64,000 nucleotides of DNA from an uncultured Planctomycetaceae bacterium (GCA_964605095.1 CAZSBS010000001.1:4790-68789); one strand, 5' to 3'. Shown: positions 14,920 through 42,205, counted from the stretch's first letter. Notes: generated by a model from the sequence alone, not told the origin. A program made the numbers and translations.

Positions 14920-14922
14920 GCC

Positions 14923-17688: not shown

Positions 17689-17712
17689 CAAGAACAGCCT
17701 TTCGTACTAACA

Positions 17713-17805: not shown

Positions 17806-17894
17806 TGTAGTGACGCCGTAAGGCGTTATGTTTATTTGCAATGTCTGCCGCGCGAGGTCCATTCGGGTCGCGCATAACGCCGGCCTGGGCGATG

Positions 17895-18290: not shown

Positions 18291-18310
18291 GACCGCCGGC
18301 TAGCCTCTCT

Positions 18311-18578: not shown

Positions 18579-18636
18579 GAAAAGCATGGCGGCTAGGGCG
18601 GGAATCTGGTATAAACTTACGCATCATGCATAGGGC

Positions 18637-19113
18637 ATGATGCTGGTCCGGCTTTTCAGGCTCCGAGAAAGTTCCGCTTTGGCGCAAAGGCCCATGAGAG
18701 ACCCCAACTGCATATTCTGCAAGATTATCGACGGTAAGATTCCTGCCGTGAAGGTTCTGGAAACGCCCGAGTTCCTGGCCTTCATGGACATTGGCCCGCT
18801 TGCCGAGGGGCATGTGCTGCTGATCCCGGCTGGGCATTATGAGACGATCGACCAGATGCCGGCCGAGCTGGCCGGGGCAATGCTGGCCCAACTGCCGCGG
18901 CTGGTTCGCGGCGTCCGGGCCGCGACGCTCTGCCAGGGCGTGAACATCCTCCAGAACAACGGCGCAGTCGCCCACCAGGAAGTCATGCACGTACACTTCC
19001 ACATCATCCCCCGCAAGGCCGGCGACGCGTTCAGGTTCAACTGGCCGGCTGGGAAATATCCCCATGGGCGGATCGAGGAGATTGCCGAAGCTATCCGCCA
19101 GAAGCTGGATTGA
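18637..19113 (+). CDS. HIT-family (histidine triad) hydrolase; likely start Met 18694
   Basis: ...CIFCKIIDGKIPA... and HVHFHIIPR histidine-triad motif. Confidence 0.85.
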   Translation: MMLVRLFRLRESSALAQRPMRDPNCIFCKIIDGKIPAVKVLETPEFLAFMDIGPLAEGHVLLIPAGHYETIDQMPAELAGAMLAQLPRLVRGVRAATLCQGVNILQNNGAVAHQEVMHVHFHIIPRKAGDAFRFNWPAGKYPHGRIEEIAEAIRQKLD

Positions 19114-21178: not shown

Positions 21179-21368
21179 GAACGGATCGCCCGGCTGAGGT
21201 CTGTTTGCTCATTGGCCAGGGGTTTTCCAGCTTGACAGTTTTCAGACCGCCAGTAGGATTGCGGCGGTAGCTGACACTCTCCTGTATATGAGGCCATCCT
21301 ATATCGGCCCTGGAAGCCCGCAGGAGTTGGCTGCCAACAGGTGTGAGCGCTTACAGGAAGGTCAAAGC

Positions 21369-27502: not shown

Positions 27503-27584
27503 TGCGAGAGGCGGGACTCGAACCCGCACCCCTTTCGGGACCAGGACCTAAACCTGGCGCGTCTGCCAATTCCGCCACCCTCGC
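27503..27584 (-). tRNA. tRNA-Leu (anticodon TAG), type II with long variable arm
   Basis: rc: GCGAGGGTGGCGGAATTGGCAGACGCGCCAGGTTTAGGTCCTGGTCCCGAAAGGGGTGCGGGTTCGAGTCCCGCCTCTCGCA; TPsiC-loop TTCGAGT; anticodon loop TTTAGGT. Confidence 0.85.
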
Positions 27585-27661
27585 GCGACCGCTGCCGCTC
27601 ACGGCGGAACATTGTCGCTTATAGAACTTATAGAAAAAGCCGGCCCGCCTTGCCAGCGTAT

Positions 27662-27706
27662 TCCGCCTTTTCCAGGTTCCGCCTTTTCCAGGTTCCGCCT
27701 TGTCTT
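27662..27706. repeat. tandem direct repeat of 16-mer ccgccttttccaggtt (2.7 copies)
   Basis: ttccgccttttccaggttccgccttttccaggttccgccttgtc in 690-bp noncoding region. Confidence 0.7.
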
Positions 27707-28151
27707 TTCCGTCGTTTCCCGAGTTCCGAGGGGCCTCCAGGGCTTCATTGTCCCCTGAAACTTGCAAAAACCCGACAATAAGAACGAGAATTACCATTGT
27801 CTTACACGGGGCGCCACGTTATGATTAGGTTAAGAGGCTGGATGTTTGGCTGCTCAGGCTTGATGGCAGGCCGGTTGCGTGAGCACATCGTCGGTGGCCC
27901 TGCGGCGCCGTACGAAAATATAAGTGAATGTTCGAATCTGGTTCTAGCTCTCCGGGCGAGCCGTTTCCAGGCTTGCCCAAGCGGGTCCACATCGGGCGGC
28001 CGCAAGGCGCCTTGGCCCGTCATGCCGATGGAGTACGTCTGGGCGATTTGGCCCGGCCGTACGTTTGCAAAGTGCCGCGTGCTCGGGTAATGCCTCCGGC
28101 GGGAGCACAGTTGCTTTTCCGTCGCGGCGCGAAGGTCGGGCATTGGCTCTC

Positions 28152-28276
28152 TTTTGCCGATTGCAACGGGCGCGACAGGCAGGTGGAAATGCGGTTCTCC
28201 GACAGGCCAGGCCTTTCGTGTCGGTAGGGACGCCCCGTTGCCGACGCCGAGGCCGCAGCGATGAGGAGATGCAATC
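28152..28276 (+). promoter_or_regulatory. conserved leader upstream of vWA paralog 1 (copy 1 of duplicated ~130-nt leader)
   Basis: ~80% identity over ~130 nt with 29527..29657 incl. shared RBS context gcgatgaggagatgcaaNcATGACC. Confidence 0.5.
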
Positions 28277-29491
28277 ATGACCATTGATTTCCGATGCGAA
28301 AACTGCGGGAAGCTGTTGAGTGTCGACGATCAGACCGGCAGCGCGGCGCGATGTCCGCATTGCCGCAAGAAAGTCACGGTCCCGGCCGCCCTGGCCGCAT
28401 TGCCCCGTCCGCACGTGCCGCCCACCGCCAGGTGCGCCACTGCTGGCTTGCCCGCCGTCGCGCAGGCGTCTGGCCAGGCTGATGGCCGGCCGGGGGAGCA
28501 AGAGCCCGTCGAGGGCGAGGCCGTCGCCGGCGCCATGGCCACGGCCATGCCATGGGTAATCAGCGCCTTCATGCACCTGGGCGTGTTCCTGGTCATGATC
28601 TTCTTCGTCATGGTGACGGTGGTCACCAAGATTCCGATTACTATCGACATACCTGAGGGGGTGAATGTCCATGAGAATCCTGGGGGCGTGATGAACCCCA
28701 AGACCGAGACGGTCTCCAAGATCGAAAGTGATCGACGGAGAGTCGTCAAGCGGGACGACCCCAAGCGGGAGGAACAGGTCGAGAGGGGCAAGACCGGCAA
28801 GAGGGTTGATCTTCTTGCTCCCTCGTCGGGTGGTGCCCGGGGCGGGGCGGCCGAATTGGGCCTGGACAACAGCGACGCGACGGGGGGGCCAGAGAGCACG
28901 TTCATCGGCGGTGGCGGCAGCGGTTTCCACATCGTGTTTGTGGTTGACCGTTCTGGCTCGATGGCTCCGACTTTCGAGCGAGTCAGGTTCGAGATGCTCA
29001 AGACCATCGCCCACTTTAAGAAGGAACAGGACTTTACGATCATCCTCTTCTCCGACAACCAGTACATCGAAGGGCCGCAGAAGCGCCTGGTCTTGGCGAC
29101 TGATGAGATCAAGGACGCGGCGACCGATTTTCTCAAGGACATAACCGCCAGCAACACGACCACGGTTTTACCAGCCCTGAAACGCGCGTTCGAGGTCCTC
29201 AAGTATGCCGACAAGGAGAAACCCGGCCGGCTCGTTTACCTGCTGAGCGACGGCGACTTTGCGGGCATGTCCGGCGGCTCGACATACACCGGCGCCGATG
29301 GCAGGGTCCTTAACGGCAACGAGGCCGTGGTCCAGTGGCTGCGGGACAACAACCCCAAGGATGAGGCGAAGGGCAGGATGCACGTTCACACGTTCCTCTA
29401 CCTCAGCAAAGACGAAGAGGCCATGAAGGTAATGAGAACCATCGCCCATGAGAACGGCGGGTGGTTCAAGCCAATTAGCGCCGATGAGTGA
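28277..29491 (+). CDS. zinc-ribbon / single-TM / periplasmic vWA-domain protein (paralog 1)
   Basis: FRCENCGKLL...CPHCRKKV C4 ribbon; TM WVISAFMHLGVFLVMIFFVMVTVV; vWA MIDAS VFVVDRSGSM...TT...LLSDGDF. Confidence 0.85.
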   Translation: MTIDFRCENCGKLLSVDDQTGSAARCPHCRKKVTVPAALAALPRPHVPPTARCATAGLPAVAQASGQADGRPGEQEPVEGEAVAGAMATAMPWVISAFMHLGVFLVMIFFVMVTVVTKIPITIDIPEGVNVHENPGGVMNPKTETVSKIESDRRRVVKRDDPKREEQVERGKTGKRVDLLAPSSGGARGGAAELGLDNSDATGGPESTFIGGGGSGFHIVFVVDRSGSMAPTFERVRFEMLKTIAHFKKEQDFTIILFSDNQYIEGPQKRLVLATDEIKDAATDFLKDITASNTTTVLPALKRAFEVLKYADKEKPGRLVYLLSDGDFAGMSGGSTYTGADGRVLNGNEAVVQWLRDNNPKDEAKGRMHVHTFLYLSKDEEAMKVMRTIAHENGGWFKPISADE

Positions 29492-29505
29492 TTCCGAGAA
29501 AACGC

Positions 29506-29661
29506 ATGTGTCAGACAAATGACTTTTTTGCCGATTGCCACCAGCGCGACGGGCTGGTAAAAATACGGTTCTCTGACAGGCAAGGGCTTTTGGCTTTTGT
29601 GTCGGCCGGGATGCCCCGTAGCCGACGGCGCCAGCGCAGCGATGAGGAGATGCAAGCATGA
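29506..29661 (+). CDS. 51-codon upstream ORF in leader of paralog 2; stop overlaps main ATG (ATGA)
   Basis: MCQTNDFFADCHQRDGLVKIRFSDRQGLLAFVSAGMPRSRRRQRSDEEMQA; homologous in-frame to 5' end of gene 30890 (MRQTTVIFAGICLAGG). Confidence 0.4.
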   Translation: MCQTNDFFADCHQRDGLVKIRFSDRQGLLAFVSAGMPRSRRRQRSDEEMQA

Positions 29662-30875
29662 CCGTTGATTTCCGATGCGAGAACTGCGGGAAGATGTTGA
29701 GTGTCGACGATCAGCCCGGCAACGCGGTTCGTTGTCCACATTGCCGCAAGAAAGTCACGGTGCCCGCGGTCCTGGCCGCGTTGCCCCGTCCGCACGTGCC
29801 CCCGAACGCCAGGCATGCCGGCTCTCATTCCGGCGGGCAGTCGCAAGGCCAGGCCGATGGCGAGCAGGACGAGCAGGGCGAGGAAGAGCCCGAAGAGGAG
29901 GGCCAGGCTGTAATGGGCGCCATGGCAACGATCATGCCCTGGGTCATCAGCGTCTTCCTGCACTTGGGCGTGTTCCTGGTCATGCTCTTCTTCGTCATGG
30001 TCGTGGTGAACACCAAGATTCCGCCGGAGATCATCATTCCGGACGCCGCGCTGAGCCTGGACAATCCCGGCGGCGTGATGGACCCCAAGACCGCGACGGT
30101 TTCCAAGAGCGAGAATGATCGGCGGACGGTCGTCAAGCGGTACACCAAGCGGGAGGACCAGGTCGACAAGGGCAAGACCGAGCAGACGGTTCAGCTTCTC
30201 GCGGCCTCATCGGACGGCGCTCACGGCGGCGCGGCCGACCTGGGCCTGACCAACAGTGACGCCGCCGGCGGACCCAAGAGCCGGTTCTTCGGCTCCGGCG
30301 GCAACGCATACCACATCGCGTACGTGGTGGACCGTTCGGGCTCGATGGCCCCGACGTTCGAGCAAGTCCGTATCGAGATGCTCAAGTCCATCAGCGGCCT
30401 TAAGGCGGTGCAGGACTTCACGATCATCCTTTTCTCCGACAACCAGTTCATCGAGGGTCCGCAGAAGCGGCTGGTCTCGGCGGAGCTTGAGAACAAGCTC
30501 GCGGCGAACAATTTCCTCAAGGACATAACCGCCCAGAGTTCGACCACGGTTTTGCCGGCCCTGAAGCGGGCGTTCCAGGTCCTCAAGTATGCCGACGCCA
30601 GCAAGCCAGGCCGGCTGGTTTACCTGCTGAGCGACGGCGACTTCGCGGGCATGTCCGGCGGCTCGACGTACACCAGCGCCGACGGCAGGGCCCTTAACGG
30701 CAACGAGGCCGTGATTCAGTGGCTGCGGGACAACAACCCCAAGGATGAGAAGAAGGGGCTGGTTCACGTCAACACGTTCCTCTACCTCAACAAGGACGAG
30801 GACGCCATGAAGGTAATGAAAACCATCGCCAAAGAGAACGCCGGCCGGTTCAAGCTCATCAGCTCCGACGAGTGA
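29658..30875 (+). CDS. zinc-ribbon / single-TM / periplasmic vWA-domain protein (paralog 2)
   Basis: 405 aa, ~70% identical to paralog 1; same C4 ribbon, TM and MIDAS motifs. Confidence 0.85.
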   Translation: MTVDFRCENCGKMLSVDDQPGNAVRCPHCRKKVTVPAVLAALPRPHVPPNARHAGSHSGGQSQGQADGEQDEQGEEEPEEEGQAVMGAMATIMPWVISVFLHLGVFLVMLFFVMVVVNTKIPPEIIIPDAALSLDNPGGVMDPKTATVSKSENDRRTVVKRYTKREDQVDKGKTEQTVQLLAASSDGAHGGAADLGLTNSDAAGGPKSRFFGSGGNAYHIAYVVDRSGSMAPTFEQVRIEMLKSISGLKAVQDFTIILFSDNQFIEGPQKRLVSAELENKLAANNFLKDITAQSSTTVLPALKRAFQVLKYADASKPGRLVYLLSDGDFAGMSGGSTYTSADGRALNGNEAVIQWLRDNNPKDEKKGLVHVNTFLYLNKDEDAMKVMKTIAKENAGRFKLISSDE

Positions 30876-30889
30876 TTCCGGGAGATAGC

Positions 30890-31963
30890 ATGCGTCAGAC
30901 AACTGTCATTTTCGCGGGGATATGCCTGGCCGGCGGGCTGGCCTTTGCGGACTCGCTGACCATCAACAACCTCCCGTATGACAATGTGCGCGTCACCGAC
31001 GTTTCCAAAGGCACGATAACCTACGAGCTTAGCGGGCGCAGGTACGACAAGCCTCTGGCCGAAGTCAGCCGCGTGGTGCTGAGCGGCCAGAGGGACTTCA
31101 ACAAGGCCGAGGACGCCTTCAAGGCCGGCAAGTTTGCCGATGCCGTCGCGGCCTACACCGAGGCTGAAAAGTCCACCGATAAGCTCGACTGGCTGCGTCG
31201 GCTGATCCGCTATCGCCGCATTCCCGCGGCCGACGCGGCGAAAATGCCGGGCCAGGCCGTCGCGGACTGGTTGAGCGTCGTCGACGACGCCGGTGCCAGC
31301 CGGGCCGTGATAGCCATGGCCCCGGAAGCGGTCGCCCCCAAGGGCTCGCCCGATAACGCCTTGGCGATGGAGCTGCTGAAAAAACGCCTCGGCAAGGGCG
31401 ATCCGATATTCCGCGCCAAGGTCAAGGACCTGCTGCTTAATCTCTATGCTGCCGAGGACCTCAAAGACAAGGCGATGCTGCTCCAGGGCGAAGGGCCGGC
31501 CACCGCCCCCGGCGGCGAGCAGGCGCCCCCGCCGCTGGTGGTCTCGGTCGAGCAGGTCTCCAGGCAGTTGCAGGAGGCCGCCAGCCAGATCAAGCTCGGC
31601 CAGTACGACGCCGCGGCTGAGAGCATAAAGGCGAAGCTTAACCGGTTTACCAGCAGTGAGCTTCCAGGCGCGCTGGTGCTTCGGGGCAAGGCGCTTCAGT
31701 TGTCATACGAGAAGGGCGGCTCCAAGGATGTCAAGAAGCTCAAGGAGGCTGGGCTGTGCTTCATGCGCGTTGCGGCATGTTGCGACCCTACCACCCCGCA
31801 GGTGCCGGAGGCCCTTTACCTCGCGGCGATGGTCGAGCGTGTACTGGGCAACCATGTCGCGGCCGCCAATGCGATGCGGATGTTGATCGCCCGGTACGCC
31901 GCGAGCGAGTGGGCCCAGAGGGCCCAGACCGCGTTGGGCGGTGCCGCCGGGCCGGAGAAGTAA
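30890..31963 (+). CDS. secreted alpha-helical protein of unknown function
   Basis: RBS ggaga 30881; signal peptide MRQTTVIFAGICLAGGLAFA; Ala/Lys-rich helical composition. Confidence 0.65.
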   Translation: MRQTTVIFAGICLAGGLAFADSLTINNLPYDNVRVTDVSKGTITYELSGRRYDKPLAEVSRVVLSGQRDFNKAEDAFKAGKFADAVAAYTEAEKSTDKLDWLRRLIRYRRIPAADAAKMPGQAVADWLSVVDDAGASRAVIAMAPEAVAPKGSPDNALAMELLKKRLGKGDPIFRAKVKDLLLNLYAAEDLKDKAMLLQGEGPATAPGGEQAPPPLVVSVEQVSRQLQEAASQIKLGQYDAAAESIKAKLNRFTSSELPGALVLRGKALQLSYEKGGSKDVKKLKEAGLCFMRVAACCDPTTPQVPEALYLAAMVERVLGNHVAAANAMRMLIARYAASEWAQRAQTALGGAAGPEK

Positions 31964-32085
31964 GAGTTGCCGCGCGGTTTTTGGGACTATCGAGTACAAT
32001 CCCCGGCCGGGCCGGCCAGGGTTGAAAAGGACACTTAAGGCAGGCAGCGAGACAGGAACCCTGTAGAACAGAGGAGATCGAGAGC

Positions 32086-32763
32086 ATGTGGGATTTTCAA
32101 TGGGCGACATTGGCGCAGATACAGCCCTCCGGCAATCTGGACTACTTCGAGATGCTGGTCTGGCCGGGCGGCGGGAGTATCGGCATTCTGCTGTGGCTGT
32201 TGAGCGTCGTGCTGGTTGCGCTGTGCATCCAGTTCTTCATCACGATCCGCCAGGGCAACATCATGCCCGACCTGGTCAAGCAGCAGATACAGACTCTTTT
32301 CGACAATAAGCAGTACCGCGAAGCGATCGAGGTGACGGCCACCGAGCCGAGCATGCTCAGCTACGTGGTTCATGCGGCGCTATCAGAGGCGGCGCACGGA
32401 TACGCCTCGATGGAGCGCGCCATGGAAGAGTCGGCCGAGGAAAAAAGCTCGGGCATGCTCCGCAAGATCGAGTGGCTGAATCTGCTGGGCAACATCAGCC
32501 CGATGCTTGGCCTGTTGGGAACCGTCTGGGGCATGATCCTGGCCTTCATGGCGATCGTCGCGGCCAAGGGCATCCCCTCGCCGGACGCGCTGGCTAAATC
32601 GATCGGCATCGCGCTGGTGACGACCCTGCTGGGCCTTATGGTGGCGATTCCGGCGCTAGGGGTCTTTGCCATTCTGCGCAACCGCATCGATGCGCTGAGC
32701 AACCAGGTGATCATGCAGTCGCAGGAGTTGATTTCGACGTTTCGCCCGGCCCCCAAGGGCTGA
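32086..32763 (+). CDS. MotA/TolQ/ExbB-family proton-channel stator subunit
   Basis: 225 aa; three TM helices; C-terminal MotA_ExbB region ...ISPMLGLLGTVWGMILAFMAI... Confidence 0.85.
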   Translation: MWDFQWATLAQIQPSGNLDYFEMLVWPGGGSIGILLWLLSVVLVALCIQFFITIRQGNIMPDLVKQQIQTLFDNKQYREAIEVTATEPSMLSYVVHAALSEAAHGYASMERAMEESAEEKSSGMLRKIEWLNLLGNISPMLGLLGTVWGMILAFMAIVAAKGIPSPDALAKSIGIALVTTLLGLMVAIPALGVFAILRNRIDALSNQVIMQSQELISTFRPAPKG

Positions 32764-32814
32764 TCGGCGCGGGCGTCATTAGACATTGCAGTCGCCAGGA
32801 CGGGTAAGGAGTAC

Positions 32815-33375
32815 ATGACAATGGCAACGAAAAAGTTTCGTTCATGCAGTGACGTCGGGTTCAACATGACCCCCATGATCGACTGCACGTTCCAGTTGAT
32901 CATCTTCTTCATCCTTGTCGGCCAGGTTGCCAACGAAACCTATGCCAAGAACGTGAAGCTCGTCAGGCCGGTCGACAGCCAGGCCATACCGTCGTCGGTG
33001 GCCAAGTTCACCAACAAGGTGACGGTGAACGTTGTCTCGGCCGCGGCCGGGGAGTTGAACCCGGACCCTGCCACGGCTTCGGAGTTGAAGTTCTACCAGA
33101 TTCTCACCGTGAAGTACCATGTCGGCGAGATTGACCGGATGATCGACGTAATCAAGAAACTCAGGAGCGACTACGAGAAGCAATTCGGCACGACCGTTTC
33201 GCCAACGGCAGGCGCAGGCGGCAAGGAAGGCGATGACAACCGGATGTTCTTCCTTGAGATCCGTGCCGACGAGCGCGTCAACTGGCAGGATGTGGCGCCC
33301 GTCATCCGTGCCGGCGTCGAGGCCGGCATCAACAAGATGAACATCACCGCCCTGACGGCACGGATCGGAGACTAA
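32815..33375 (+). CDS. ExbD/TolR-family protein (paralog 1)
   Basis: N-terminal MTPMIDCTFQLIIFFILV single TM typical of ExbD/TolR. Confidence 0.75.
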   Translation: MTMATKKFRSCSDVGFNMTPMIDCTFQLIIFFILVGQVANETYAKNVKLVRPVDSQAIPSSVAKFTNKVTVNVVSAAAGELNPDPATASELKFYQILTVKYHVGEIDRMIDVIKKLRSDYEKQFGTTVSPTAGAGGKEGDDNRMFFLEIRADERVNWQDVAPVIRAGVEAGINKMNITALTARIGD

Positions 33376-33376
33376 C

Positions 33377-33883
33377 ATGGCTATTACAGCAAACAAACCG
33401 GTGGAAGGCGACGAGACAGTCCACCATGTATCGCCCAGCAAGGAAAAGGACAAGCCGAAGGCGAGCATGCAGCCGCCGATGACGCCGATGATCGACGTCA
33501 CGTTCCAGTTGCTGCTGTTCTTCATCCTCACGTTCGAGTTCCGCGAGTCGGAAGGCATGATCCCGGGCACGCTGCCGAACAAGGGCTCCATTGCCCAGTC
33601 GGTCACCGACACTCCGCCGCCGGACCCGATCCAGATCCGCGTGATCCCCTCGGCAAACAAGGAAACCGCCAGCTACGAGATGACCGGAATCGGCGTGGCG
33701 ATTGCGACCCCGCACGATCTCGGTGAGCTTCTCAAGCAGCGGCGGGAGCAGATAGGCAGCACGGAAGTGCCCATAGTGATATTTCCCAGCCAGGACGTGC
33801 CCTGGGGGTTCGTCGTCGAGGCGTTCAACCAGGCCAAGAGGGCGAATTTCCAGAAGATCGGTTTTGCCCAGCAGATAATGTGA
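33377..33883 (+). CDS. ExbD/TolR-family protein (paralog 2)
   Basis: ...QPPMTPMIDVTFQLLLFFILTFEF... ; C-term ...VPWGFVVEAFNQAKRANFQKIGFAQ. Confidence 0.78.
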   Translation: MAITANKPVEGDETVHHVSPSKEKDKPKASMQPPMTPMIDVTFQLLLFFILTFEFRESEGMIPGTLPNKGSIAQSVTDTPPPDPIQIRVIPSANKETASYEMTGIGVAIATPHDLGELLKQRREQIGSTEVPIVIFPSQDVPWGFVVEAFNQAKRANFQKIGFAQQIM

Positions 33884-33985
33884 CTTATCCGCGCCGGGCG
33901 GGTGATGCCGCGGCAGGCTGGGCATGAGAAGAATGAGCGACATCGCCCGTTTGGATGGCGAAAGGCTCTGCCAAGGGAGACTATC

Positions 33986-34492
33986 ATGGCGATTTCTACA
34001 AGCAGGACGGTAGAAGGCGACGAGAAAGTCCACCATAAGGCGCCCGCCGGAAAGCCAAAGGGCTCAGCCAACCTCCAGCCGCCCATGACCCCGATGATCG
34101 ACGTGACGTTCCAACTGCTGCTGTTCTTCCTGCTGACCTGCGAGTTCCGAGAGTCCGAAGGGGCGATACCCGGCACGCTGCCCCGGATCGACAATGGGCT
34201 GGTTGTTAGGCCTCCAGTTCCGCCCCAGTCGGACCCGATCGAGATCCGGCTGCGTCCCTCCGCCGACCGGCAGTCGGCAAGTTACCAACTGACCGGAGTG
34301 GCCACGGTTATCACGAGCGTCCGTGAGTTGGGCGACCTGCTCCGGGTTCGCCAGGAGCAGCTTGGCAGCGGGGAGGTGCCGGTGGTGATATACCCCAACC
34401 CGGATGTGCCCTGGGGGTTTGTCGTTGAGGCGTTCAACCAGGCCAAGAGGGCGAGGTTCAGCAAGATCGGCTTTGCCCAGGGAATACTGTAA
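33986..34492 (+). CDS. ExbD/TolR-family protein (paralog 3, recent duplicate of paralog 2)
   Basis: ATG 33986; ...QPPMTPMIDVTFQLLLFFLLTCEF...VPWGFVVEAFNQAKRARFSKIGFAQ near-identical blocks to paralog 2. Confidence 0.78.
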   Translation: MAISTSRTVEGDEKVHHKAPAGKPKGSANLQPPMTPMIDVTFQLLLFFLLTCEFRESEGAIPGTLPRIDNGLVVRPPVPPQSDPIEIRLRPSADRQSASYQLTGVATVITSVRELGDLLRVRQEQLGSGEVPVVIYPNPDVPWGFVVEAFNQAKRARFSKIGFAQGIL

Positions 34493-34545
34493 GCCAGCCG
34501 GTCCGCGGCGGGCAAGTGATAAGCTAGAGCGAGTGTGAGATAGGT

Positions 34546-37500
34546 ATGACGAAGATTCGCATCGGCCTGCCCAAGCTGGCTGCAATCGGCATAATCGCGG
34601 TGGCGAGCCTGTCGTGCGCGGCTGTGGCGCAAGAAAAGAAGATACCCAGCGCCTACGAGCAACTGCCGATAGACAGGCTCATCAAGCAGCTTTCGCAGTT
34701 GGGGATGACCGAACTGTTGCAGGCCATCGAGGACGATATTCCGGCCGAGGACAAGTCCTTCCGGGCTCTGACGCTCCGCGGCCGCGTCCGCATGGGTCAG
34801 GCCAACGCCATGGCCAAGCCGGAAGACCAGAACGCGAAGATGGACGAGGCCATCGTGATTCTGCGTGCCGCGGTTAAGAAGGGCCAAGAGGAGGACAGCG
34901 CCGACGCCGGCGACCAGCTCGAGTTGTATCGGGTCATGTTGGAGTTGGCGACGGCGGAGGGGCGGTACCGCATTGAAAGCCCGCACATTCTCCGCCTGCG
35001 AATGCTGCTGGGCAACGACGCCGACCGCAAGATTATACTCCGATTCACCAAGGAGGCCGTGGAACTGTCCTACATCCTTGAGGACAAGATCTCCCGCGCG
35101 CTTACGGGGTTGCGGTCGAACATGGGCGATTACATGCGATACGGACCCGCAATGGAGGACCTCCAGCGGGAGATGCGCTACAACTCCGGATGGATCCGCC
35201 TGCACCGCGCCATGGCCCTGCCAGCCGGGAGCGAGCGGGCTGAACTCTGCCGCAACGTCATCGCCGACATGAAGGAGTTCTCCGAAGACCCCGACAGCGG
35301 CGTTATGGGCTGGGCCATGTTTGCCACGGGAGCCGCCCAACGCATGCTGGGCAATTGGGCCGATGCCGATGATGTGCTCAAGAAGGTCGCCGAAAACCCC
35401 AACGAGGACAAGGAACTGCGCCAGCGGGCGTGGTTCGAACGGGTTCGAAACTGCATCGACGAGGGTGCCGACGCGAAGATCGACCGCGCCCTGGCTGATT
35501 TCGAGGCCGGCTCCCTGGCCATCTGGGGCGAGGAAAAACGGGTCATCGTCGATCTGCGTCTGGTGCTGCTGCGGAGCTATCGAGTCGAGTTGGCGGCAGT
35601 CAAGGAAACCAACGCCGCCAAGAGGAAGGCCCTGTTCGCCCAGGCCCAGGCCGAACTGCTGAAGTTCGTCGAGAAGTACGCCGACCGCCCGGACCTGATC
35701 AGGCCCTTCCTTGAAATGGTCAATACCAAGTTCGCGGGCGACGACGACCTGACCAACGCTAGCGCCATCGTCTGCATGGCAAGGGCCTATGCCAAGCTCG
35801 CCAGCGAGAAGCCCCAGGACAAGGCCGAGGGGGAAAAGCTCCTGCTGAGGGTGCTGAATCACAAGGACCTCGACAACCCCAAGATCGCCCAGGCTATCGA
35901 GCCCGGTGTGCTCTACGAGCTTGCCTTCATAATGAACCAGCGCAAGCTCAACGTCGAGGCGTCCAAGTACTTCGTCAGGCTTGCCCGCAAGTATCCCAAG
36001 CACGACCTGGCCGAGAAGTCAGCCATGTTCGCGGTCCGAAGCCTCTACGGCGTTTTAGCCGAACGCCAGGAAAAGGGCGAGGAGATTTCCCCGAGCCTTC
36101 GCCTGGAATACATCCGCGCCCTGGAAACGTTGCTGGGAAACTGGTCAACCGCGAAAGACGCCGTCAAGTGGAACTTCGACCTTGCCGCCCAGTGCATCAA
36201 GCTGGCCGGGCAGTCCGAGGAACCAGCCGTCAAGTTCTACTGGCAGGTCCGGGCAATCGCCGCCAACGAGAAGATCCCCCTGGCGATGCTGGAGTACATG
36301 GAGGCTCAGCATGCCGCCCTGGAAATGCGATACCAGATCGTGCTGAACCGCGACGAGTTGGCCGAGGTGCTCGGCGGCGGCCCCGAGCGGCTCAAGCAGT
36401 CTCTGGGCCGGCTGGCCGAGACGCTTGTGGAGCTGGACAACGTCGTCCTGCCGCCGGAGGCGTCCGCGACGTCGGCCCCGGCCGAGGACGCCGAGGTGAA
36501 GGTCTCCGCGGAAGCCCGCGACAAGAAGATCACCGAGACGGGCAAGCTGCTCAACGACAGCCTCAAGACGTACTCGGACCCGACAGCCCTTGTCGAGCAA
36601 CTCAAGAAGTACTCCGTCGACGCCCTGGCCGAGAGCAAGAAGGCGGCTGAGAAGGCCGCGTCGGTTGGGGGCGAGGAGAAGGCGCAGTTCCAGGCCAACG
36701 CCGATGGGCTCAAGGAGTGGTCCGCCCAGGCCGAATACCAGGCCGCTGTCATCAAGTACGAGCAGTTTCCCAAACTGCTCTCCAAGGACAATGCCGAGGG
36801 GCGACAGAAGATCGAACAGGAGGCCCTGGGGGATCTGCGGGCGCTGATAGCCAGGCTGACGGCCGAGGGAAAGTCCAATGGCGCCTCGGCCCGCGAGCAT
36901 TCGCCGGTCCTGCCGATGGCCCACGAGTTCGAGATACGCAAGCTCATCGAACTCGGGCGGACCGACGAGGCGATCGCCAAGATCCAGGATTTCAAGAAGT
37001 CCTTCCCCGATCAGGCCAAGCAACTTATTCAGTTGCTGGTCCAGCAGATTCAGGAGCAGATCATCCGGCTGGAGAAGCGCCTCAAGAGTGCCGTGACCCA
37101 GGCCCAGGCCGATGAGGTCCGCCAGGCGCTGGATCGCTACCAGACGGCTTACGTGAACTTCGCCAAGGACCTGTATGACCCCGTGGCAGGCAAGCCTCTC
37201 AAACTGCCTGAGTTGGAAGCCATGCGGCGCGATCTGCGGGCACTGGAGCAGAAGCGCGATTTTGACGGCCTGTTGGCAAAGGCCCAGGGCCTGCCCGCTC
37301 TGGCGGCCGAGAACGACGTGAAGCTCGAGGACCTCAAGGGCAAGGAAGTGCTGGATAGCTGGATTGCCGGCGCAAAGGCGCCGGGCGCCGACCGCAACAA
37401 CATCCTGCCCAAGCTGGCCGCGGCCACGATGAACATGGTGCTGAACATCCGCGACGTTGTCATGGAACGCTACGGACTCGTCCAGATGTACGCCGACTCG

Positions 37501-38226
37501 CTTCTGAACAGGGGCAAGGCCGAACATTTGGCCAAGCGGGACGACTCGTCCAAGGCTGCCTACAAGGAGGCCCTGGACCTGTTCAAGAAGTGCTTCGATC
37601 TGGACGACGCCTGCCGCAAGGGCGAGGCTGCATGGCTGGCCAAGAAGTACAGCCCGTTCATCGAGGACGTCAAGGCCAACGCCAAGAGCATGGGCGCCGT
37701 CAGCAGGATGGTCGAGGCCTTCCGGAAGGAGTTGAAGGACGCCGAGCAGATCCAGGCCATGTCCGCGGACATGTCGTCGATGGAGTATGCCGATAAGTAT
37801 GTCCGCGGCGCAGCCAATCAGCAGCAGGAGCAGGAGCGGCTGCCGCGTGCGGTGGAGATGCTGGTTCGCGGGTGGAACAACCTGGTGCGGACATTGCAGA
37901 ACCAGACCATTATTGACCACCTGAACATTATCGGCATGGCCCGGGCGCAGCGTGGGCTGGGCAACTATGGCGAGGCAATGGCGCTGTATCGCCGTTACAC
38001 CGAGGGTCTCCCCAGAGACAAGTTCCCCTCGAAATACTGGCATGCCGAACTGGAGCGGTGCCAGTGCAACCTGGACGGCTACCTGAGCAACCCCGAGGCC
38101 ATGAAGAACTTGGTGATCCAGATAAACTCCCTGAGGATCAAGGACAAGGAAATGGGAGGCATGGCTGCCGAGTTTGAGCAGATAAAGAAGACGGCAGGCG
38201 GCAAGGCCGGCCAGGGCGGCAAGTGA
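34546..38226 (+). CDS. 1226-aa secreted all-alpha (TPR/coiled-coil-like) protein of unknown function
   Basis: signal peptide MTKIRIGLPKLAAIGIIAVASLSCAAVA; uninterrupted ORF with protein-like K/E/A/L composition; antisense ORFs are GC-artifacts. Confidence 0.8.
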   Translation: MTKIRIGLPKLAAIGIIAVASLSCAAVAQEKKIPSAYEQLPIDRLIKQLSQLGMTELLQAIEDDIPAEDKSFRALTLRGRVRMGQANAMAKPEDQNAKMDEAIVILRAAVKKGQEEDSADAGDQLELYRVMLELATAEGRYRIESPHILRLRMLLGNDADRKIILRFTKEAVELSYILEDKISRALTGLRSNMGDYMRYGPAMEDLQREMRYNSGWIRLHRAMALPAGSERAELCRNVIADMKEFSEDPDSGVMGWAMFATGAAQRMLGNWADADDVLKKVAENPNEDKELRQRAWFERVRNCIDEGADAKIDRALADFEAGSLAIWGEEKRVIVDLRLVLLRSYRVELAAVKETNAAKRKALFAQAQAELLKFVEKYADRPDLIRPFLEMVNTKFAGDDDLTNASAIVCMARAYAKLASEKPQDKAEGEKLLLRVLNHKDLDNPKIAQAIEPGVLYELAFIMNQRKLNVEASKYFVRLARKYPKHDLAEKSAMFAVRSLYGVLAERQEKGEEISPSLRLEYIRALETLLGNWSTAKDAVKWNFDLAAQCIKLAGQSEEPAVKFYWQVRAIAANEKIPLAMLEYMEAQHAALEMRYQIVLNRDELAEVLGGGPERLKQSLGRLAETLVELDNVVLPPEASATSAPAEDAEVKVSAEARDKKITETGKLLNDSLKTYSDPTALVEQLKKYSVDALAESKKAAEKAASVGGEEKAQFQANADGLKEWSAQAEYQAAVIKYEQFPKLLSKDNAEGRQKIEQEALGDLRALIARLTAEGKSNGASAREHSPVLPMAHEFEIRKLIELGRTDEAIAKIQDFKKSFPDQAKQLIQLLVQQIQEQIIRLEKRLKSAVTQAQADEVRQALDRYQTAYVNFAKDLYDPVAGKPLKLPELEAMRRDLRALEQKRDFDGLLAKAQGLPALAAENDVKLEDLKGKEVLDSWIAGAKAPGADRNNILPKLAAATMNMVLNIRDVVMERYGLVQMYADSLLNRGKAEHLAKRDDSSKAAYKEALDLFKKCFDLDDACRKGEAAWLAKKYSPFIEDVKANAKSMGAVSRMVEAFRKELKDAEQIQAMSADMSSMEYADKYVRGAANQQQEQERLPRAVEMLVRGWNNLVRTLQNQTIIDHLNIIGMARAQRGLGNYGEAMALYRRYTEGLPRDKFPSKYWHAELERCQCNLDGYLSNPEAMKNLVIQINSLRIKDKEMGGMAAEFEQIKKTAGGKAGQGGK

Positions 38227-38314
38227 TCCGGCGCCGGAGAACATTGCCGGACAGATGTTTGAAAACCAGCGGTTGACGCGGGATTGCCTGATACTATACT
38301 GGCGCGGACAAAAC

Positions 38315-38388
38315 GGCGGCGTAGCCAAGCGGACCAAGGCGACGGATTGCAAATCCGTTATTCGTGGGTTCGAATCCCACCGCCGCCT
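38315..38388 (+). tRNA. tRNA-Cys (anticodon GCA)
   Basis: GGCGGCGTAGCCAAGCGGACCAAGGCGACGGATTGCAAATCCGTTATTCGTGGGTTCGAATCCCACCGCCGCCT; 7-bp acceptor stem, TTCGAAT T-loop. Confidence 0.88.
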
Positions 38389-38424: not shown

Positions 38425-39681
38425 ATGCTGAAGCACGCGTATCTTTCCATGCTGTGCTGCCTCTTGCTGGCTTGCGGTTATTGCTTTGCCGAGAAAAAGC
38501 AGATCAAGCTCAAGAGCGGCGAGACCATCATTGGCGAGGTTGTCGAGCAGACTCCCGAGGGGATAAAAGTCAAGCGCCCCCTGGCGACGGTGTTCTATCC
38601 GAAGGACCAGATCGTCTCGATCGAGCCGGTATACGACGTTAAGGAAGATTACGCGAATCGTCTGTCCAAGCTCAAGAAGGACGACTTCGAGGGCCAGTTG
38701 GCACTTGGGCAGTGGGCCTTGGAGAACAAGCTCTATCCCGAGGCCGTCAAGCACCTTGAAGAGGCCGTGAAGCTCAAGAACGAGGAGCGCGCCCGCTTGC
38801 TGCTTCGCCAGGCCCAGGCCAGGCTCGAGGATGCCGAGAAAGCCAAGGAGACTCCCTCCAAGGGCGGCGACAAGTCGGGGTCCTCGGCAGGCGGCGATGG
38901 TGCCACGTTCAGCATGAAGCAAATGGTCAGCGACGATGACATCCAGCGGATTCGCATGGCGGAACTCTCGGATGACGACCGGGTGAAAGTCGAGTTTCGC
39001 AAGGACGTGGTCGACAGGTTCTTGGAGCAGGTTCGTGGGCGGGGCAAATTCGCGGAGGAAACCGACGTCGCCAAGTTCCGCCGCCTGCCGGCCTTGCGCC
39101 AGGCCAAGATCATCATCGAGGAAGTCGGCCCCGGCGACCCACTCAGGAACGACATCATCATCAAGTCGGACCCGGCTTCAATGCGCGAGTTCCACTCGGG
39201 CGTCTGGCGGTGGGTTTCGACCAGTTGTGCCGCGGCGACCTGTCACGGCTCGGCCAAGGGTCAGGGCGGGCTGAAGCTCTGGAACGTTACCGCCCGAAGC
39301 GACAACGTGGACTACACCAACTTCCTGATCCTCGACGCGTTTCACACCAAGGGCGGCCTTCAGGTGATCCGGCGCGATGAGCCGGAAGAGTCGCTGCTGT
39401 TGCAGTTCGGCCTGCCGGACAACCAGGCCAAGCACCGTCATCCGAAGGAGAAACGCCCGCCGTTTTCCAGCAAGACCTCGCCGCTCTACAAGCAGACGCT
39501 GGATTGGATTCTGTCTTTGAAGCGCCCGCTGCACCCGGAGTACGGCCTCAAGAGCATTCCGCCGCACGTGATGAAGCGAATCGACCCGTTGTTCGGGCTG
39601 CCCACTTCACCGGTGCCCAAGGATAAGGGCGCCAAGGACAAGTCTGGCAAGTCTGATAAGTCAAGCAAGCCGCCTTTCTGA
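38425..39681 (+). CDS. secreted protein with C-terminal PSCyt1-like (planctomycete cytochrome-c-like) region carrying a CX4CH motif
   Basis: signal peptide MLKHAYLSMLCCLLLACGYCFA; ...WRWVSTSCAAATCHGSAKGQGGLKLWN... Confidence 0.55.
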   Translation: MLKHAYLSMLCCLLLACGYCFAEKKQIKLKSGETIIGEVVEQTPEGIKVKRPLATVFYPKDQIVSIEPVYDVKEDYANRLSKLKKDDFEGQLALGQWALENKLYPEAVKHLEEAVKLKNEERARLLLRQAQARLEDAEKAKETPSKGGDKSGSSAGGDGATFSMKQMVSDDDIQRIRMAELSDDDRVKVEFRKDVVDRFLEQVRGRGKFAEETDVAKFRRLPALRQAKIIIEEVGPGDPLRNDIIIKSDPASMREFHSGVWRWVSTSCAAATCHGSAKGQGGLKLWNVTARSDNVDYTNFLILDAFHTKGGLQVIRRDEPEESLLLQFGLPDNQAKHRHPKEKRPPFSSKTSPLYKQTLDWILSLKRPLHPEYGLKSIPPHVMKRIDPLFGLPTSPVPKDKGAKDKSGKSDKSSKPPF

Positions 39682-39712: not shown

Positions 39713-40378
39713 TTGGCGATGGAGCAGATTCAATACGCCTTCGTGGCTGTGCTGGTCGGCGTGCTGGTCGCCGCCAGCGTTTCTTTCGCGGTGATGGGCC
39801 TGGGCAAGGTTCTTCGGCGTCGCCGGTTGGCTCGCGACGCCCACCAGCGCGGGCTGAGGTTCTTTCCTGACGATCCTTACGACGTGCCGAGGCGTTATGC
39901 GGACTTCGCGGTGATATCCTCCGGGCACAGCCCGTGCGCTAACAACGTAACTGCCGGCGGGATAGTCGGCAGGACGGTGCGAGCATTCGATTTTCGCTGC
40001 GAGTTGGGCCACGGAACTCGCAGGCTCACGCGGCGCTATAGCGTGGCCATTGCCGAGACTCGCCTGAGTCAGCCGAGCCTGCTGATGTGGCACACGGGCG
40101 ACGGCGAGTTGGCCCCGCTGGCGGCAAGGGATGTCCAGGGCCGGGTCGGACAGTGGAGTTTCCGCGGGTCGCGGGAGTTGGCTGAGACTGTCGAGGCCGC
40201 GTGCCGACATCTCGGCCCGGCCCAGCCGAGCGTCGAGATTCGCGGCTCGGTCGTCCTGATAGCCGTGTCGGTGCGGCGGGCCATTCGCCAGTACGCCCTT
40301 GCCTTGGACGAAGTTTCGGGCATTATAGAGGCCCTGGACGGCCCCCGTGGCCCCAGGCCACCCGCGGTGGGGGCCTGA
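39713..40378 (+). CDS. hypothetical membrane-anchored protein
   Basis: 221 aa; N-terminal TM FVAVLVGVLVAASVSFAVMGL; coding-like GC3. Confidence 0.5.
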   Translation: MAMEQIQYAFVAVLVGVLVAASVSFAVMGLGKVLRRRRLARDAHQRGLRFFPDDPYDVPRRYADFAVISSGHSPCANNVTAGGIVGRTVRAFDFRCELGHGTRRLTRRYSVAIAETRLSQPSLLMWHTGDGELAPLAARDVQGRVGQWSFRGSRELAETVEAACRHLGPAQPSVEIRGSVVLIAVSVRRAIRQYALALDEVSGIIEALDGPRGPRPPAVGA

Positions 40379-40549
40379 CCGTGGGCCGGGCCGCCGGGCA
40401 GTCGGCGAGAATCGAGAATATCGCGTCGAAGTTGTTGGACAAGATGTATGCAGGCCGTTGCAAACGGCCCTCCGGTGTGTTAGAAAGTTGCTTGCGAGAT
40501 TCCACTGGCCGTGCCAATGCCGGCTGCGGACATATTGGGAGAGGACATC

Positions 40550-42205
40550 GTGCAAAAGGACAAACGTTTCGGTTGCGTCGCGCTGAGCTTGGTCTGCCTG
40601 TCCGCGGCGCTACTCGCGGGATGCCGCAGCACCGCCAGCCCACTGGCAGAAGCCACCGCCCGCGCTGGTCGGCTCTATGATCGGGCGTGCAGCCTGCTTA
40701 ACGACACGCCCTACATGGTCCGCCAGCAGTATGCGCCCTTCGCCAAGCCGATCGAGCTGCCCTCGGATCCCAATGCGGCGGTAAAGCTGGTCCAGCTTAC
40801 CGCGCTGGGGCAGATCAACCCGCGGGCCGACAAGACGCTCAACGAGGCCATCGACGGCCTGACCAAGGCCCTGGCTGGGGCCGAAGGCCGGCCGGAGATC
40901 GAAAAAGTCAACGCGCAGGCTGTCTTGGCCCGGCTGTACGCTCTGCGCGGCTACCGCATGTCGATCGAGGCCGGCCTGAGGTGCCGACAGGCATGGGACC
41001 TCGCCGGCCTGGTGGAAAGCGACGCAGTCCGCATCAGCGGGTTGGGCAAGCGGATCGCCAGCTACGACCAGATCCTTAGCGTCACGGACGAGTCGCTCGG
41101 CAAGATGGCCGAGGCCGCCAAGACGCAGCAGTCGGCCGCCGAGGATAAGATCGCCGAGGCCAACACGAAAATCGCGGCCCTGGACAAGGAAGAGGCGGAC
41201 CTGAAGGCTGCAAACGTCACAATCTCCGAGGAGTCGCGAAAGCTTCTCACTGAAAGCCAGATTGCTGACCCGATCAAGGGCGTCGCGATTTATGACGAGG
41301 CCAAGACTAAGGAAGACAAGGCCAGCGTGAACTCCGCCCGCATAGCGCAGATCGAAGAGGCCATGCAGACCATCAAGTCACAGGTGGCGGAGTTCGAGGT
41401 GGTTCGGGTGGCCGCGGTTAATCAGGCGAAAGTGGCTGGCGATATGGCCGATACCCGCCAGAAGAGCCGCTCCGAAACCGATCAGGCGCGGAAGGCCCAG
41501 ATTGACAAGTTGACCGAGGCCCAGAAGCAGGCGGAGACGCTGGCGGGGCAGGTCGTCGAGGTATCCAAGGCCGCCGCCGCCGCCGAGGCCAAGGCCCTGG
41601 GCGACTACGACAAGGCTGTCAAGACCTACGAGACCTATGGGCAAATCACGGAATCGTACGCCAAGGATCCAGGCGCCGATGCCTTCCTCAAGCCCGACCC
41701 CGCCATTATTGCGATGCTTGGCGACGTGCAAATGGCGCGGGCGGACCTCAGGGTCCAGGCCCTCCTGCTTCAGCATCGCCTGCAAACCGTCGTCGCGGAG
41801 ACATCCGGCATATGGTCCAGCCTGCCGACGCAGAACACCACGCCCGCGGTTATCGGACAGATGAAGGATTACGTCCCCAATCCGGGCAAGCTTAAGGAAG
41901 ATGCCCAGCGCGACTTCAGTTGGGCCGCGAGGGCCTACGAGAAGGCCAAAGAGGCTGTTATTGACCCGAAGCTCAAGTGGGCCTACGTGCTCCAGCAGTC
42001 GGCCGCGAACGTCAGCCTCTACCGCCTGTCCGGCGACGCCGACGCCAAACAGAAGGCGACAGCGGAACTGGACTCCCTCGGCACAGAGGAAGCCTCGCCC
42101 CTGATCGCCCCAACGGCTGACGGTTTCCGCAAGCTGCTGGCCGCCCCGGCCCTGCTTGGCTCCGAGGCGCCTTTCAGCCCGGCGCCCACCCAGCCCGCGC
42201 CGTGA
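40550..42205 (+). CDS. coiled-coil lipoprotein of unknown function (GTG start after RBS gggagagga)
   Basis: (M)QKDKRFGCVALSLVCLSAALLAGC lipobox; long Ala/Lys/Glu-rich coiled-coil segments. Confidence 0.6.
   Translation: MQKDKRFGCVALSLVCLSAALLAGCRSTASPLAEATARAGRLYDRACSLLNDTPYMVRQQYAPFAKPIELPSDPNAAVKLVQLTALGQINPRADKTLNEAIDGLTKALAGAEGRPEIEKVNAQAVLARLYALRGYRMSIEAGLRCRQAWDLAGLVESDAVRISGLGKRIASYDQILSVTDESLGKMAEAAKTQQSAAEDKIAEANTKIAALDKEEADLKAANVTISEESRKLLTESQIADPIKGVAIYDEAKTKEDKASVNSARIAQIEEAMQTIKSQVAEFEVVRVAAVNQAKVAGDMADTRQKSRSETDQARKAQIDKLTEAQKQAETLAGQVVEVSKAAAAAEAKALGDYDKAVKTYETYGQITESYAKDPGADAFLKPDPAIIAMLGDVQMARADLRVQALLLQHRLQTVVAETSGIWSSLPTQNTTPAVIGQMKDYVPNPGKLKEDAQRDFSWAARAYEKAKEAVIDPKLKWAYVLQQSAANVSLYRLSGDADAKQKATAELDSLGTEEASPLIAPTADGFRKLLAAPALLGSEAPFSPAPTQPAP

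Follow-up and report, generated by a model that had tools for sequence, protein, structure and literature searches.

The 64,000-nucleotide stretch of DNA analysed here (the window), from an uncultured Planctomycetaceae bacterium (GCA_964605095.1, CAZSBS010000001.1:4790-68789), contains a cluster of genes for two membrane proteins that carry a zinc ribbon and a vWA (von Willebrand factor A) domain, an ExbB/ExbD-type stator, and secreted proteins, one of them a 1226-aa helical protein referred to below as the giant. The locus is probably a Phycisphaerae-type Planctomycetota version of predicted vWA force-transducer systems, in which a TolQR-like stator would pull on the zinc-ribbon/transmembrane (TM)/vWA proteins. 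A preliminary description of the window had proposed an undescribed, proton-motive-force-energised and periplasm-spanning machine with a vWA module as its output. Such systems were in fact predicted computationally in 2025 (PMC12204202) and are thus not undescribed. The reading as a machine of this kind holds as far as sequence evidence reaches, because the vWA proteins have a Ser-x3-His membrane helix, a disordered linker and an intact metal-ion-dependent adhesion site (MIDAS), the genes are co-conserved, and no TonB or TolA C-terminal domain is found.

The vWA proteins

The two vWA proteins exhibit 73% sequence identity. In vWA1 a C4 zinc ribbon (aa 1-36, cysteines C7, C10, C26 and C29), predicted to be cytoplasmic, is followed by a membrane helix with S96 and H100 (aa 91-115, nt 28547-28621), by a disordered linker of ~85 residues (about aa 118-204), and by a vWA domain (aa 205-404) with the MIDAS residues D224-x-S226-x-S228 (nt 28943-28963), T295 and D325. 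The membrane helix of vWA2 comprises aa 93-117 (nt 29934-30008), and its MIDAS is encoded by nt 30327-30347. Matches to VWA_2/VWA and a weak match to a zinc ribbon were obtained for both proteins with Pfam and NCBIfam.

Conservation of these elements was assessed in an alignment of 42 family members that are 36-81% identical to vWA1. The motif MPWV[IL]S-x3-H-x-G in the membrane helix is present in 42/42 members, with M91, P92, S96, H100 and G102 invariant. The MIDAS is complete (D224, S226 and S228 invariant, T295 and D325 kept in >90% of the sequences), in agreement with the earlier description of the vWA domain as MIDAS-competent, and the four ribbon cysteines are either invariant, as are C26 and C29, or kept in >90%. 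A further motif, [IV]x[IV]P[DE], is conserved 5-10 residues past the membrane helix. In the SHLS motif of TonB and TolA, the motor is contacted by the Ser-x3-His, which lies at the cytoplasmic end of their single helix, and S96-x3-H100 is likewise located toward the cytoplasmic end of the vWA membrane helix.

The AlphaFold2 (AF2) model of vWA1 consists of the zinc ribbon (residues 1-40), a disordered segment (51-80), a helix (81-117), a second disordered segment (124-199) and the vWA domain (205-404). Its pLDDT (predicted local distance difference test) score is about 90 for the vWA domain and <50 for the linker at 124-199, and no strand is formed at the [IV]x[IV]P[DE] segment in this monomer model. 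When the vWA domain was compared with the PDB by Foldseek, the top matches were MIDAS-type adhesion vWA domains (E 2e-11 to 1e-7); the nearest solved folds belong to extracellular binding domains that depend on a MIDAS, namely ITIH1, the SpaC pilus adhesin, the alpha2-delta subunit of the calcium channel, anthrax-toxin receptors, CLCA1 and integrin I domains. A sequence search of the PDB with the zinc ribbon returned only archaeal RpoP/Rpo12-type ribbons, and none of the matches listed for it was described as GltJ or ZitP. To look for the combination of zinc ribbon and membrane helix on other output domains, a profile of this N-terminal part was searched; it gave only six short fragments and was uninformative.

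The stator

The best match of the ExbB protein was TolQ in NCBIfam and E. coli TolQ in a sequence search of the PDB (6e-13), where both ring threonines were aligned. Each of the three ExbD proteins, like its orthologues, has the Asp in the membrane helix. The ExbD proteins fall into two types, A and B, which constitute separate orthologous lineages. A type-A orthologue was found in every related cluster. The type-B proteins carry a motif of roughly H-[HY]-V-x-x-[SR]-K-K in their cytoplasmic N-terminal tail (33377-33500 and 33986-34100 in the window, and in the orthologues of the related loci L001-L007), which is missing from the type-A proteins. The combination of one type A with one type B would fit a heterodimeric plug.

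The two type-B copies of the window are 61% identical. One copy is present in L001, L005, L007 and L010, and two in L002, L003 and L012. The duplications of the vWA and type-B ExbD genes in the window are recent; the close relative L001 has one vWA gene, whose product is 83% identical to vWA2, and one type-B ExbD gene. A leader of ~130-160 nt stands ahead of both vWA genes (28149-28276 and 29523-29657, 78% identity between the copies), and that of vWA1 matches the leader in L001 (581-740) at 84% identity over 160 nt. It matches no Rfam family and is not conserved in distant relatives, and its predicted fold is stable with one compensatory pair among three sequences and almost no covariation. 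A role as a regulatory RNA was rejected on the lack of an Rfam family, the scant covariation and the conservation in close relatives only; the duplicated leader is probably a trace of the recent duplication, carrying promoter and ribosome-binding site.

Conservation and extent of the gene cluster

Related loci were taken from contigs with family members at 36-43% identity, from two genome loci and from a scan of metagenome contigs. Loci with a Zn-ribbon vWA gene were regarded as informative when at least 2 kb followed downstream (n=23). In 20 of these 23 loci the genes follow the same order, i.e. one to three vWA genes, one or two genes for a ~360-aa protein, ExbB, ExbD-A, one or two ExbD-B, and a helical giant of 900-1280 aa, and this order persists to about 26% vWA identity; the three loci that do not conform are L009, L016 and L024. 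The genes of the window are thus co-conserved and their juxtaposition is not due to chance, since the same gene order recurs in the 20 related loci.

All eight co-oriented genes of the preliminary description were found as open reading frames on the + strand, with the pair of Zn-ribbon/TM/vWA proteins, the one ExbB and the three ExbD proteins confirmed by Pfam and NCBIfam. The spacing is tight as claimed, with measured values of -4 to 166 bp in place of 1-170 bp, and the non-coding gap of 690 bp in front of vWA1 amounts to 692 bp. The proposed boundaries had to be revised at both ends. Position 28152 is not the start of a gene but coincides with the start of the ~130-nt duplicated leader, and beyond position 38226 the conserved unit extends through a tRNA-Cys into three further genes, encoding a 418-aa protein, a 221-aa membrane protein and a 564-aa lipoprotein. 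The region first described therefore makes up the leading portion of a module with 11 genes or more, and tRNA-Leu and tRNA-Cys do not bracket the system, as the latter sits inside the conserved cluster.

In the window and in 7/7 relatives examined, the tRNA-Cys(GCA) separates the giant from the 418-aa gene and is co-oriented with both (Table 1). This position has been kept despite divergence of the proteins on either side to 23-40% identity. The promoter-like site ahead of the tRNA could also drive the three downstream genes. At the other end of the cluster, upstream of the vWA gene, L002, L005, L007 and L010 have a tRNA-Leu(TAG) on the opposite strand, as does the window.

Among the 11 cluster products, no match to TonB_C, TonB_2, TolA, TolB or OmpA/Pal was obtained with Pfam or NCBIfam, and none of the first eight contains a MotB domain, in accordance with the earlier description of a stator unaccompanied by TonB, TolA, Pal or MotB. 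Neither a TolB beta-propeller nor Pal is encoded in the cluster, as judged from the 64-kb window. A TonB or TolA C-terminal domain was looked for in the giant and the secreted proteins and was not found.

Secreted, membrane and lipoprotein partners

Two secreted all-helical proteins had been proposed. This holds for the giant; the 363-aa protein has, between its signal peptide and its TPR-like (tetratricopeptide repeat) helices, a short conserved N-terminal segment that looks non-helical. For both proteins Pfam and NCBIfam gave weak TPR matches only. The C-terminal region of the 363-aa protein shows a sub-threshold resemblance to the YbgF/CpoB TPR (5.5e-7), and a weak, likewise sub-threshold match to BamD was obtained. 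Orthologues with a signal peptide occur at the same position in L001, L003 (two copies), L005, L007, L010 and L012.

The giant, which has a signal peptide in all orthologues, was modelled as an all-alpha solenoid (pLDDT 86) without an alpha/beta C-terminal domain, and its matches in the PDB are local and confined to TPRs. A family profile made from trimmed sequences retrieved 355 representatives at E<=1e-3 among 1.84 billion proteins, and the named members are 'hypothetical proteins' of Phycisphaerae. By these searches, the giant appears to be a lineage-restricted orphan family.

The 418-aa protein, conserved after the giant in L001, L002, L003, L005, L007, L010, L012 and L025, has a small N-terminal domain, a TPR-like helix pair and a C-terminal domain with the motif C-x4-C-H-G (aa 268-274, 39226-39246) followed by GGLKL...YTNF...SLLL. 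The C-x4-C-H motif is conserved in 5/6 orthologues, the one in L005 being without the first Cys and the His. The only family matches are weak (PSCyt1 in Pfam, E 0.06; Lepto_7_Nterm, 1.9e-6). The C-terminal pattern recalls the planctomycete cytochrome c domain PSCyt1, but with CX4CH instead of CXXCH. In its layout the 418-aa protein is like the 363-aa protein, with a signal peptide, a small segment at the N-terminus and a TPR-like region. Profile-profile comparison of the 363-aa, 418-aa, 564-aa and giant families with one another gave nothing significant (best probability 25%).

The 221-aa protein is conserved in L001, L002, L005, L010, L012 and L025. It has an N-terminal helix followed by an Arg-rich stretch, and because of this stretch its C-terminal domain is probably cytoplasmic according to the positive-inside rule. 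Homologues of the 564-aa lipoprotein with a canonical lipobox are present in L005 and L007, with partial matches in L001 and L012. No family match was obtained for either the 221-aa or the 564-aa protein.

Alternative anchors of the vWA domain

The vWA domain also occurs, at 60-77% identity, in a 259-aa lipoprotein with the lipobox LAAGC and a short linker (Table 1). In L012, a close relative with 72-91% identity over the cluster, the 363-aa gene and the motor genes are immediately preceded by this lipoprotein gene, and no Zn-ribbon vWA gene is present in the 660 nt available upstream. In L011 it lies between cysS and ruvC. The vWA domain was also seen fused, in P0103 to an FGE-sulfatase-like domain and in P0084 to a repeat region. 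The arrangement in L012 suggests that a lipoprotein-anchored vWA can replace the membrane-anchored form. Conversely, L009 contains two tandem Zn-ribbon/TM/vWA genes with an intact SxxxH helix (10001-12344), and no ExbB/ExbD, TPR or giant genes within 10 kb; in L016 and L024 no motor genes are found downstream.

Genomic neighbourhood

The window and L007 share flanking genes, namely one for a synthase-like protein of glycosyltransferase family 2 (GT2; 73% identity) and one for a sigma factor (61%), both well above the identity of the cluster proteins, and further upstream the rpoA and L17 genes. Because these shared flanks are better conserved than the cluster proteins themselves, the cluster appears to be a vertically inherited chromosomal module and not a mobile island. 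In the window, rpoA and L17 belong to a ribosomal-protein-like region (1-19000), and L007 exhibits a full spc/alpha cluster there, i.e. macro-synteny.

The sigma-70-family protein of ~560 aa has regions 2 and 4 and a ~380-aa N-terminal extension rich in helix-turn-helix motifs, and is RpoD-like, yet far under the curated cut-offs. Its gene follows the cluster in 3/3 loci that are long enough (the window; L007, 20417-21158; L010, 21074-21143), and it may regulate the cluster or simply reflect conserved synteny.

Polysaccharide or other polymer-related genes are located upstream of several clusters. They encode an AlgE-like porin and the processive GT2 synthase-like protein in the window (21288-22829 and 25858-27447; the GT2 gene also in L007), an MBOAT and two AlgX proteins in L003 (2683-6993), Bac_transf and a ParA/AAA_31-like protein in L005 (2242-3746), PEP-CTERM proteins in L010 (1357-4029), and three beta-helix proteins on the P0120 contig. 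Their presence could be due to chance in a phylum rich in such genes.

Table 1. Positions of the cluster genes, tRNAs and neighbouring features in the window, and of corresponding features in related loci.
Feature	Locus	Position	Strand	Evidence or remark
tRNA-Leu(TAG)	window	27503..27584	-	ARAGORN and Rfam
Upstream non-coding region	window	27585..28276	.	last ~130 nt (about 28149-28276) = leader copied before vWA2
vWA1, 404 aa	window	28277..29491	+	Pfam VWA_2 2.3e-9
vWA2, 405 aa	window	29658..30875	+	Pfam VWA_2; vWA1 paralogue, same architecture
363-aa secreted TPR-like protein	window	30872..31963	+	signal peptide; weak TPR matches
ExbB/TolQ-like stator subunit, 225 aa	window	32086..32763	+	Pfam MotA_ExbB 1.7e-27
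ExbD/TolR-like type A, 186 aa	window	32815..33375	+	Pfam ExbD 2.2e-12; membrane-helix Asp23
ExbD/TolR-like type B, 168 aa	window	33377..33883	+	Pfam ExbD 3.6e-15; membrane-helix Asp40
Second ExbD type B	window	33902..34492	+	Pfam ExbD 2.2e-14; true start likely ATG 33986
1226-aa secreted all-alpha TPR-containing solenoid (giant)	window	34546..38226	+	
Promoter-like site ahead of tRNA-Cys	window	38273-38300		10/12 consensus positions matched
tRNA-Cys(GCA)	window	38315..38388	+	ARAGORN and Rfam
418-aa secreted protein	window	38425..39681	+	synteny with relatives, alignment
221-aa bitopic membrane protein	window	39713..40378	+	synteny with relatives
564-aa helical lipoprotein	window	40511..42205	+	lipobox LLAGC at aa 34-38
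Sigma-70-family protein	window	42417..44108	+	Pfam Sigma70_r2 and r4
tRNA-Cys	L001	9053-9126		
tRNA-Cys	L002	14007-14080		
tRNA-Cys	L003	19793-19867		
tRNA-Cys	L005	17736-17809		
tRNA-Cys	L007	17138-17210		
tRNA-Cys	L010	16970-17045		
tRNA-Cys	L012	8991-9064		
Lipoprotein vWA paralogue	L012	663-1442		
Lipoprotein vWA paralogue	L011	10001-10780		
Lipoprotein vWA paralogues and fused versions				proteins P0051, P0057, P0091, P0103, P0084

Proposed mechanism and role

For a module with this gene content and synteny, and with these domain architectures and invariant motifs, we infer the following arrangement, including its stoichiometry, docking, MIDAS partner and physiological role. The TolQ-like ExbB would form a pentameric proton channel, and one type-A and one type-B ExbD would together constitute a heterodimeric plug or rotor with a proton-binding Asp in each membrane helix. 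The Zn-ribbon/TM/vWA proteins would dock on the outside of the stator by means of the helix face that bears the cytoplasm-proximal Ser-x3-His, as TonB and TolA do, and the strand-like [IV]x[IV]P[DE] motif just past the helix is a candidate 'motor box'. Proton flux would pull on the ~85-residue disordered linker and thereby on the periplasmic vWA domain, whose MIDAS may grip an acidic residue of a partner. The likeliest partners would be the secreted scaffold, i.e. the 1226-aa solenoid and the 363-aa and 418-aa TPR proteins, or the 564-aa lipoprotein, which would be the part closest to the outer membrane. The zinc ribbon, the tail of the type-B ExbD and the 221-aa membrane protein may serve as a cytoplasmic input or anchoring face.

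Several observations weigh against this arrangement. The SHLS motif is only half kept, with Met and Val at the positions of the Leu and the second Ser, and the TM3 Glu of ExbB and of TolQ (in GIAEAL) is replaced by Ile both here and in the orthologues (TM3 is at about aa 168-190). Among the cluster products no outer-membrane beta-barrel, peptidoglycan-binding domain or MIDAS ligand was identified, and the absence of TonB and TolA applies to the 64-kb window, with the remaining genome outside view. The motor genes of L012 adjoin a lipoprotein-anchored vWA that has neither the zinc ribbon nor the SxxxH helix, and the Zn-ribbon vWA genes of L009, L016 and L024 have no motor genes in their vicinity. 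Furthermore, the authors who predicted such transducers stated that their function is unknown and that deletion phenotypes had not been reported (PMC12204202). The vWA domain would thus operate in the periplasm with more than one type of anchor, and the membrane-helix form is predicted to be coupled to this stator.

With regard to physiological role, we tentatively place first a coupling of the inner and outer membranes that supports envelope integrity and substitutes for Tol-Pal. Handling of surface polymers or adhesion, in the manner of the Agl-Glt/Nfs machines, ranks second and is more doubtful, and import, ranked third, seems distinctly improbable. A bolder proposal, which we regard as speculative and rather unlikely, is that the module of 11-12 genes is the Phycisphaerae replacement of Tol-Pal and represents a third class of proton-driven trans-envelope system, in which a MIDAS vWA domain bears the force and a GltJ-like zinc ribbon provides the wiring to the cytoplasm, and which is needed for outer-membrane tethering or for constriction at division. 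The Planctomycetota are not known to possess FtsZ.

Ton and Tol are the two textbook routes by which inner-membrane energy reaches the outer membrane of diderm bacteria. A third type of output, a metal-dependent vWA 'grip' on the same kind of motor, has so far been proposed from computation alone. The present locus provides a clean, deeply conserved and multi-component example from a phylum reported to lack Pal, and adds several parts to the proposal: the zinc ribbon, an orphan periplasmic solenoid of ~1200 aa, two further secreted proteins with TPRs, a lipoprotein, and a membrane protein whose soluble domain is probably cytoplasmic, as well as natural variants with a lipid-anchored vWA domain. 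If a role in outer-membrane tethering or division is true, it would explain how Planctomycetota can live without Tol-Pal.

Alternative explanations

The locus might instead be a relative or analogue of the 'core complex' of the Agl-Glt/Nfs machines, with a TolQR-type motor, a heterodimeric TolR pair, and transducers that bind a ~1200-aa TPR 'pillar'. The task of such a machine would be to move or arrange an adhesin at the surface, or a coat of polysaccharide, and not to tether the outer membrane, and this explanation, which we consider unlikely, hence contests the physiological role and not the mechanism of force transduction. The part lists run in parallel (AglR with AglQ/AglS, GltG/GltJ, GltD, GltE/GltC and CglB), the cysteines of the GltJ zinc ribbon are similarly placed (C5, C8, C28 and C31, as compared to C7, C10, C26 and C29 here), the Glt core complex also occurs in non-gliding bacteria where its function is unknown, and polysaccharide-related genes precede several of the clusters. 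On the other hand, no sequence-level link was found: the giant belongs to its own small family with Phycisphaerae as the named members, no Glt-type family was matched in NCBIfam or Pfam, and the PDB matches of the zinc ribbon are all RpoP-type ribbons. Barrels of the GltA/B/H type, GYF and FHA domains and MglA are all missing here, and the vWA domain is held in the periplasm by an inner-membrane tether and is not surface-exposed. Polysaccharide genes are common in Planctomycetota, so that their adjacency may be fortuitous.

A second possibility, which we judge to be rather improbable, is that the vWA proteins are uncoupled from the stator and act as periplasmic scaffold or ligand-binding proteins that happen to have a membrane anchor, while ExbB/ExbD energise a transducer encoded elsewhere. 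The lipoprotein-anchored vWA that takes the place of the membrane-helix form in L012, its paralogues at unrelated loci such as L011, the three loci with vWA genes and no motor genes, and the half-kept SHLS motif would all be accounted for in this way. An invariant MPWV[IL]S-x3-H-x-G motif would be unusual in a passive anchor, however, and the vWA genes adjoin the motor genes in 20/23 loci. Moreover, the cluster offers no other candidate for a transducer, as the 221-aa protein is without a His-bearing helix and has its soluble domain on the cytoplasmic side, and in published AlphaFold3 (AF3) models of related proteins the conserved His is placed at the TonB/TolA site (PMC12204202).

It is very improbable that the cluster is an ordinary Ton or Tol-Pal locus in which TonB, TolA or Pal has diverged past recognition. 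The ExbB and ExbD proteins are bona fide members of their families, closest to TolQ and TolR, and the C-terminal region of the 363-aa protein is weakly CpoB/YbgF-like. Against this, Planctomycetes were reported to be without Pal (PMC12204202, supplement), none of the 11 products matched TonB_C, TolA, TolB, OmpA or Pal, the giant is helical throughout, and, where a bitopic protein of the cluster has a periplasmic domain, its C-terminus is a vWA fold modelled with confidence.

It is hardly credible that the locus is Bat-like, a system of the MoxR-vWA kind or, like Zorya, a phage defence with a MotAB-like stator: Bat operons do pair membrane-anchored vWA proteins (BatA, BatB) with TPR proteins, and Zorya does use MotAB-like stators, but no MoxR AAA+ ATPase, DUF58 or BatA_N domain was detected in the cluster, none of nine products matched a PADLOC model, and the cluster is vertically inherited beside housekeeping genes and not part of a variable island. 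The ordinary Ton/Tol, Bat-like and defence readings were accordingly rejected.

Comparison with known systems

The closest relatives of the locus by description are the vWA force-transducers predicted for bacteria of the Planctomycetes-Verrucomicrobia-Chlamydiae (PVC) group, with Tichowtungia aerotolerans as the seed (PMC12204202, Mol Biol Evol 2025). In these inner-membrane-tethered proteins an SHLS helix is followed by a disordered linker that contains a motor box, and a vWA domain forms the C-terminus. Their genes adjoin TPR, tolQ and two tolR genes and occur in Proteobacteria, Planctomycetes, Verrucomicrobia, Bacteroidetes and Rhodothermaeota, and according to the supplement the Tichowtungia locus has two transducers. 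Among the papers searched, no other one deals with such systems. The present proteins, which were compared with those of Tichowtungia by published description, are alike in the TonB/TolA-like Ser and His of the helix, the disordered linker with a putative motor box, the C-terminal vWA domain, and the TPR and motor genes alongside (in the window and in 20/23 relatives). They differ in the N-terminal C4 zinc ribbon, which is present in every member here whereas zinc is not mentioned in the paper, in the position of the conserved His (His100 as compared to His35 in the seed), and in gene order, with the vWA genes upstream of the TPR and motor genes here and downstream in the paper. The mechanistic idea is thus already published, while the zinc ribbon, the giant, the three downstream genes, the embedded tRNA-Cys and the lipoprotein vWA do not appear in the text of that paper.

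With the Ton and Tol systems the locus shares a MotA/ExbB/TolQ-type channel with ring threonines, the Asp of ExbD/TolR, a bitopic transducer in which a Ser-x3-His helix precedes a long and flexible spacer in the periplasm, and a TPR protein that is weakly CpoB-like. The output is different, a MIDAS vWA domain here as opposed to the C-terminal domain of TonB and TolA, which binds by beta-strand addition. There are two heterologous types of ExbD in place of one, ExbB is without the TM3 Glu, an extra cytoplasmic zinc ribbon is present, and the cluster contains no gene for TolB, Pal or a TonB-dependent receptor. The Bat operons of Bacteroides and Leptospira resemble the locus in their tandem membrane-anchored vWA and TPR genes; they have MoxR and DUF58 and no ExbB/ExbD, and the N-terminal domain of BatA was not found here by Pfam.

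The closest experimentally studied analogue appears to be the Agl-Glt machinery of Myxococcus xanthus with its 'core complex' (aglRQS plus gltD, E, G and C). There, too, a TolQ-like channel (AglR) is combined with a heterologous TolR-like pair (AglQ/AglS), and GltG and GltJ are bitopic proteins with a single membrane helix each, GltJ having an N-terminal zinc ribbon. GltD, an exported TPR protein of ~1200 aa, is the central pillar that binds the C-terminal domains of the transducers, further exported TPR proteins are present (GltE, GltC), and CglB is a vWA/MIDAS adhesin. The parallel between the two sets of components is striking, but sequence comparison revealed no homology of the zinc ribbon, the giant or the TPR proteins to that machinery. 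The C-terminal domains of GltG and GltJ are TonB-C-like, CglB is a separate outer-membrane lipoprotein, and the barrel, GYF, FHA and MglA-type elements of that machinery have no counterpart here. If a role in the handling of surface polymers is true, the present locus would be tied to the still unexplained Agl-Glt 'core complex'.

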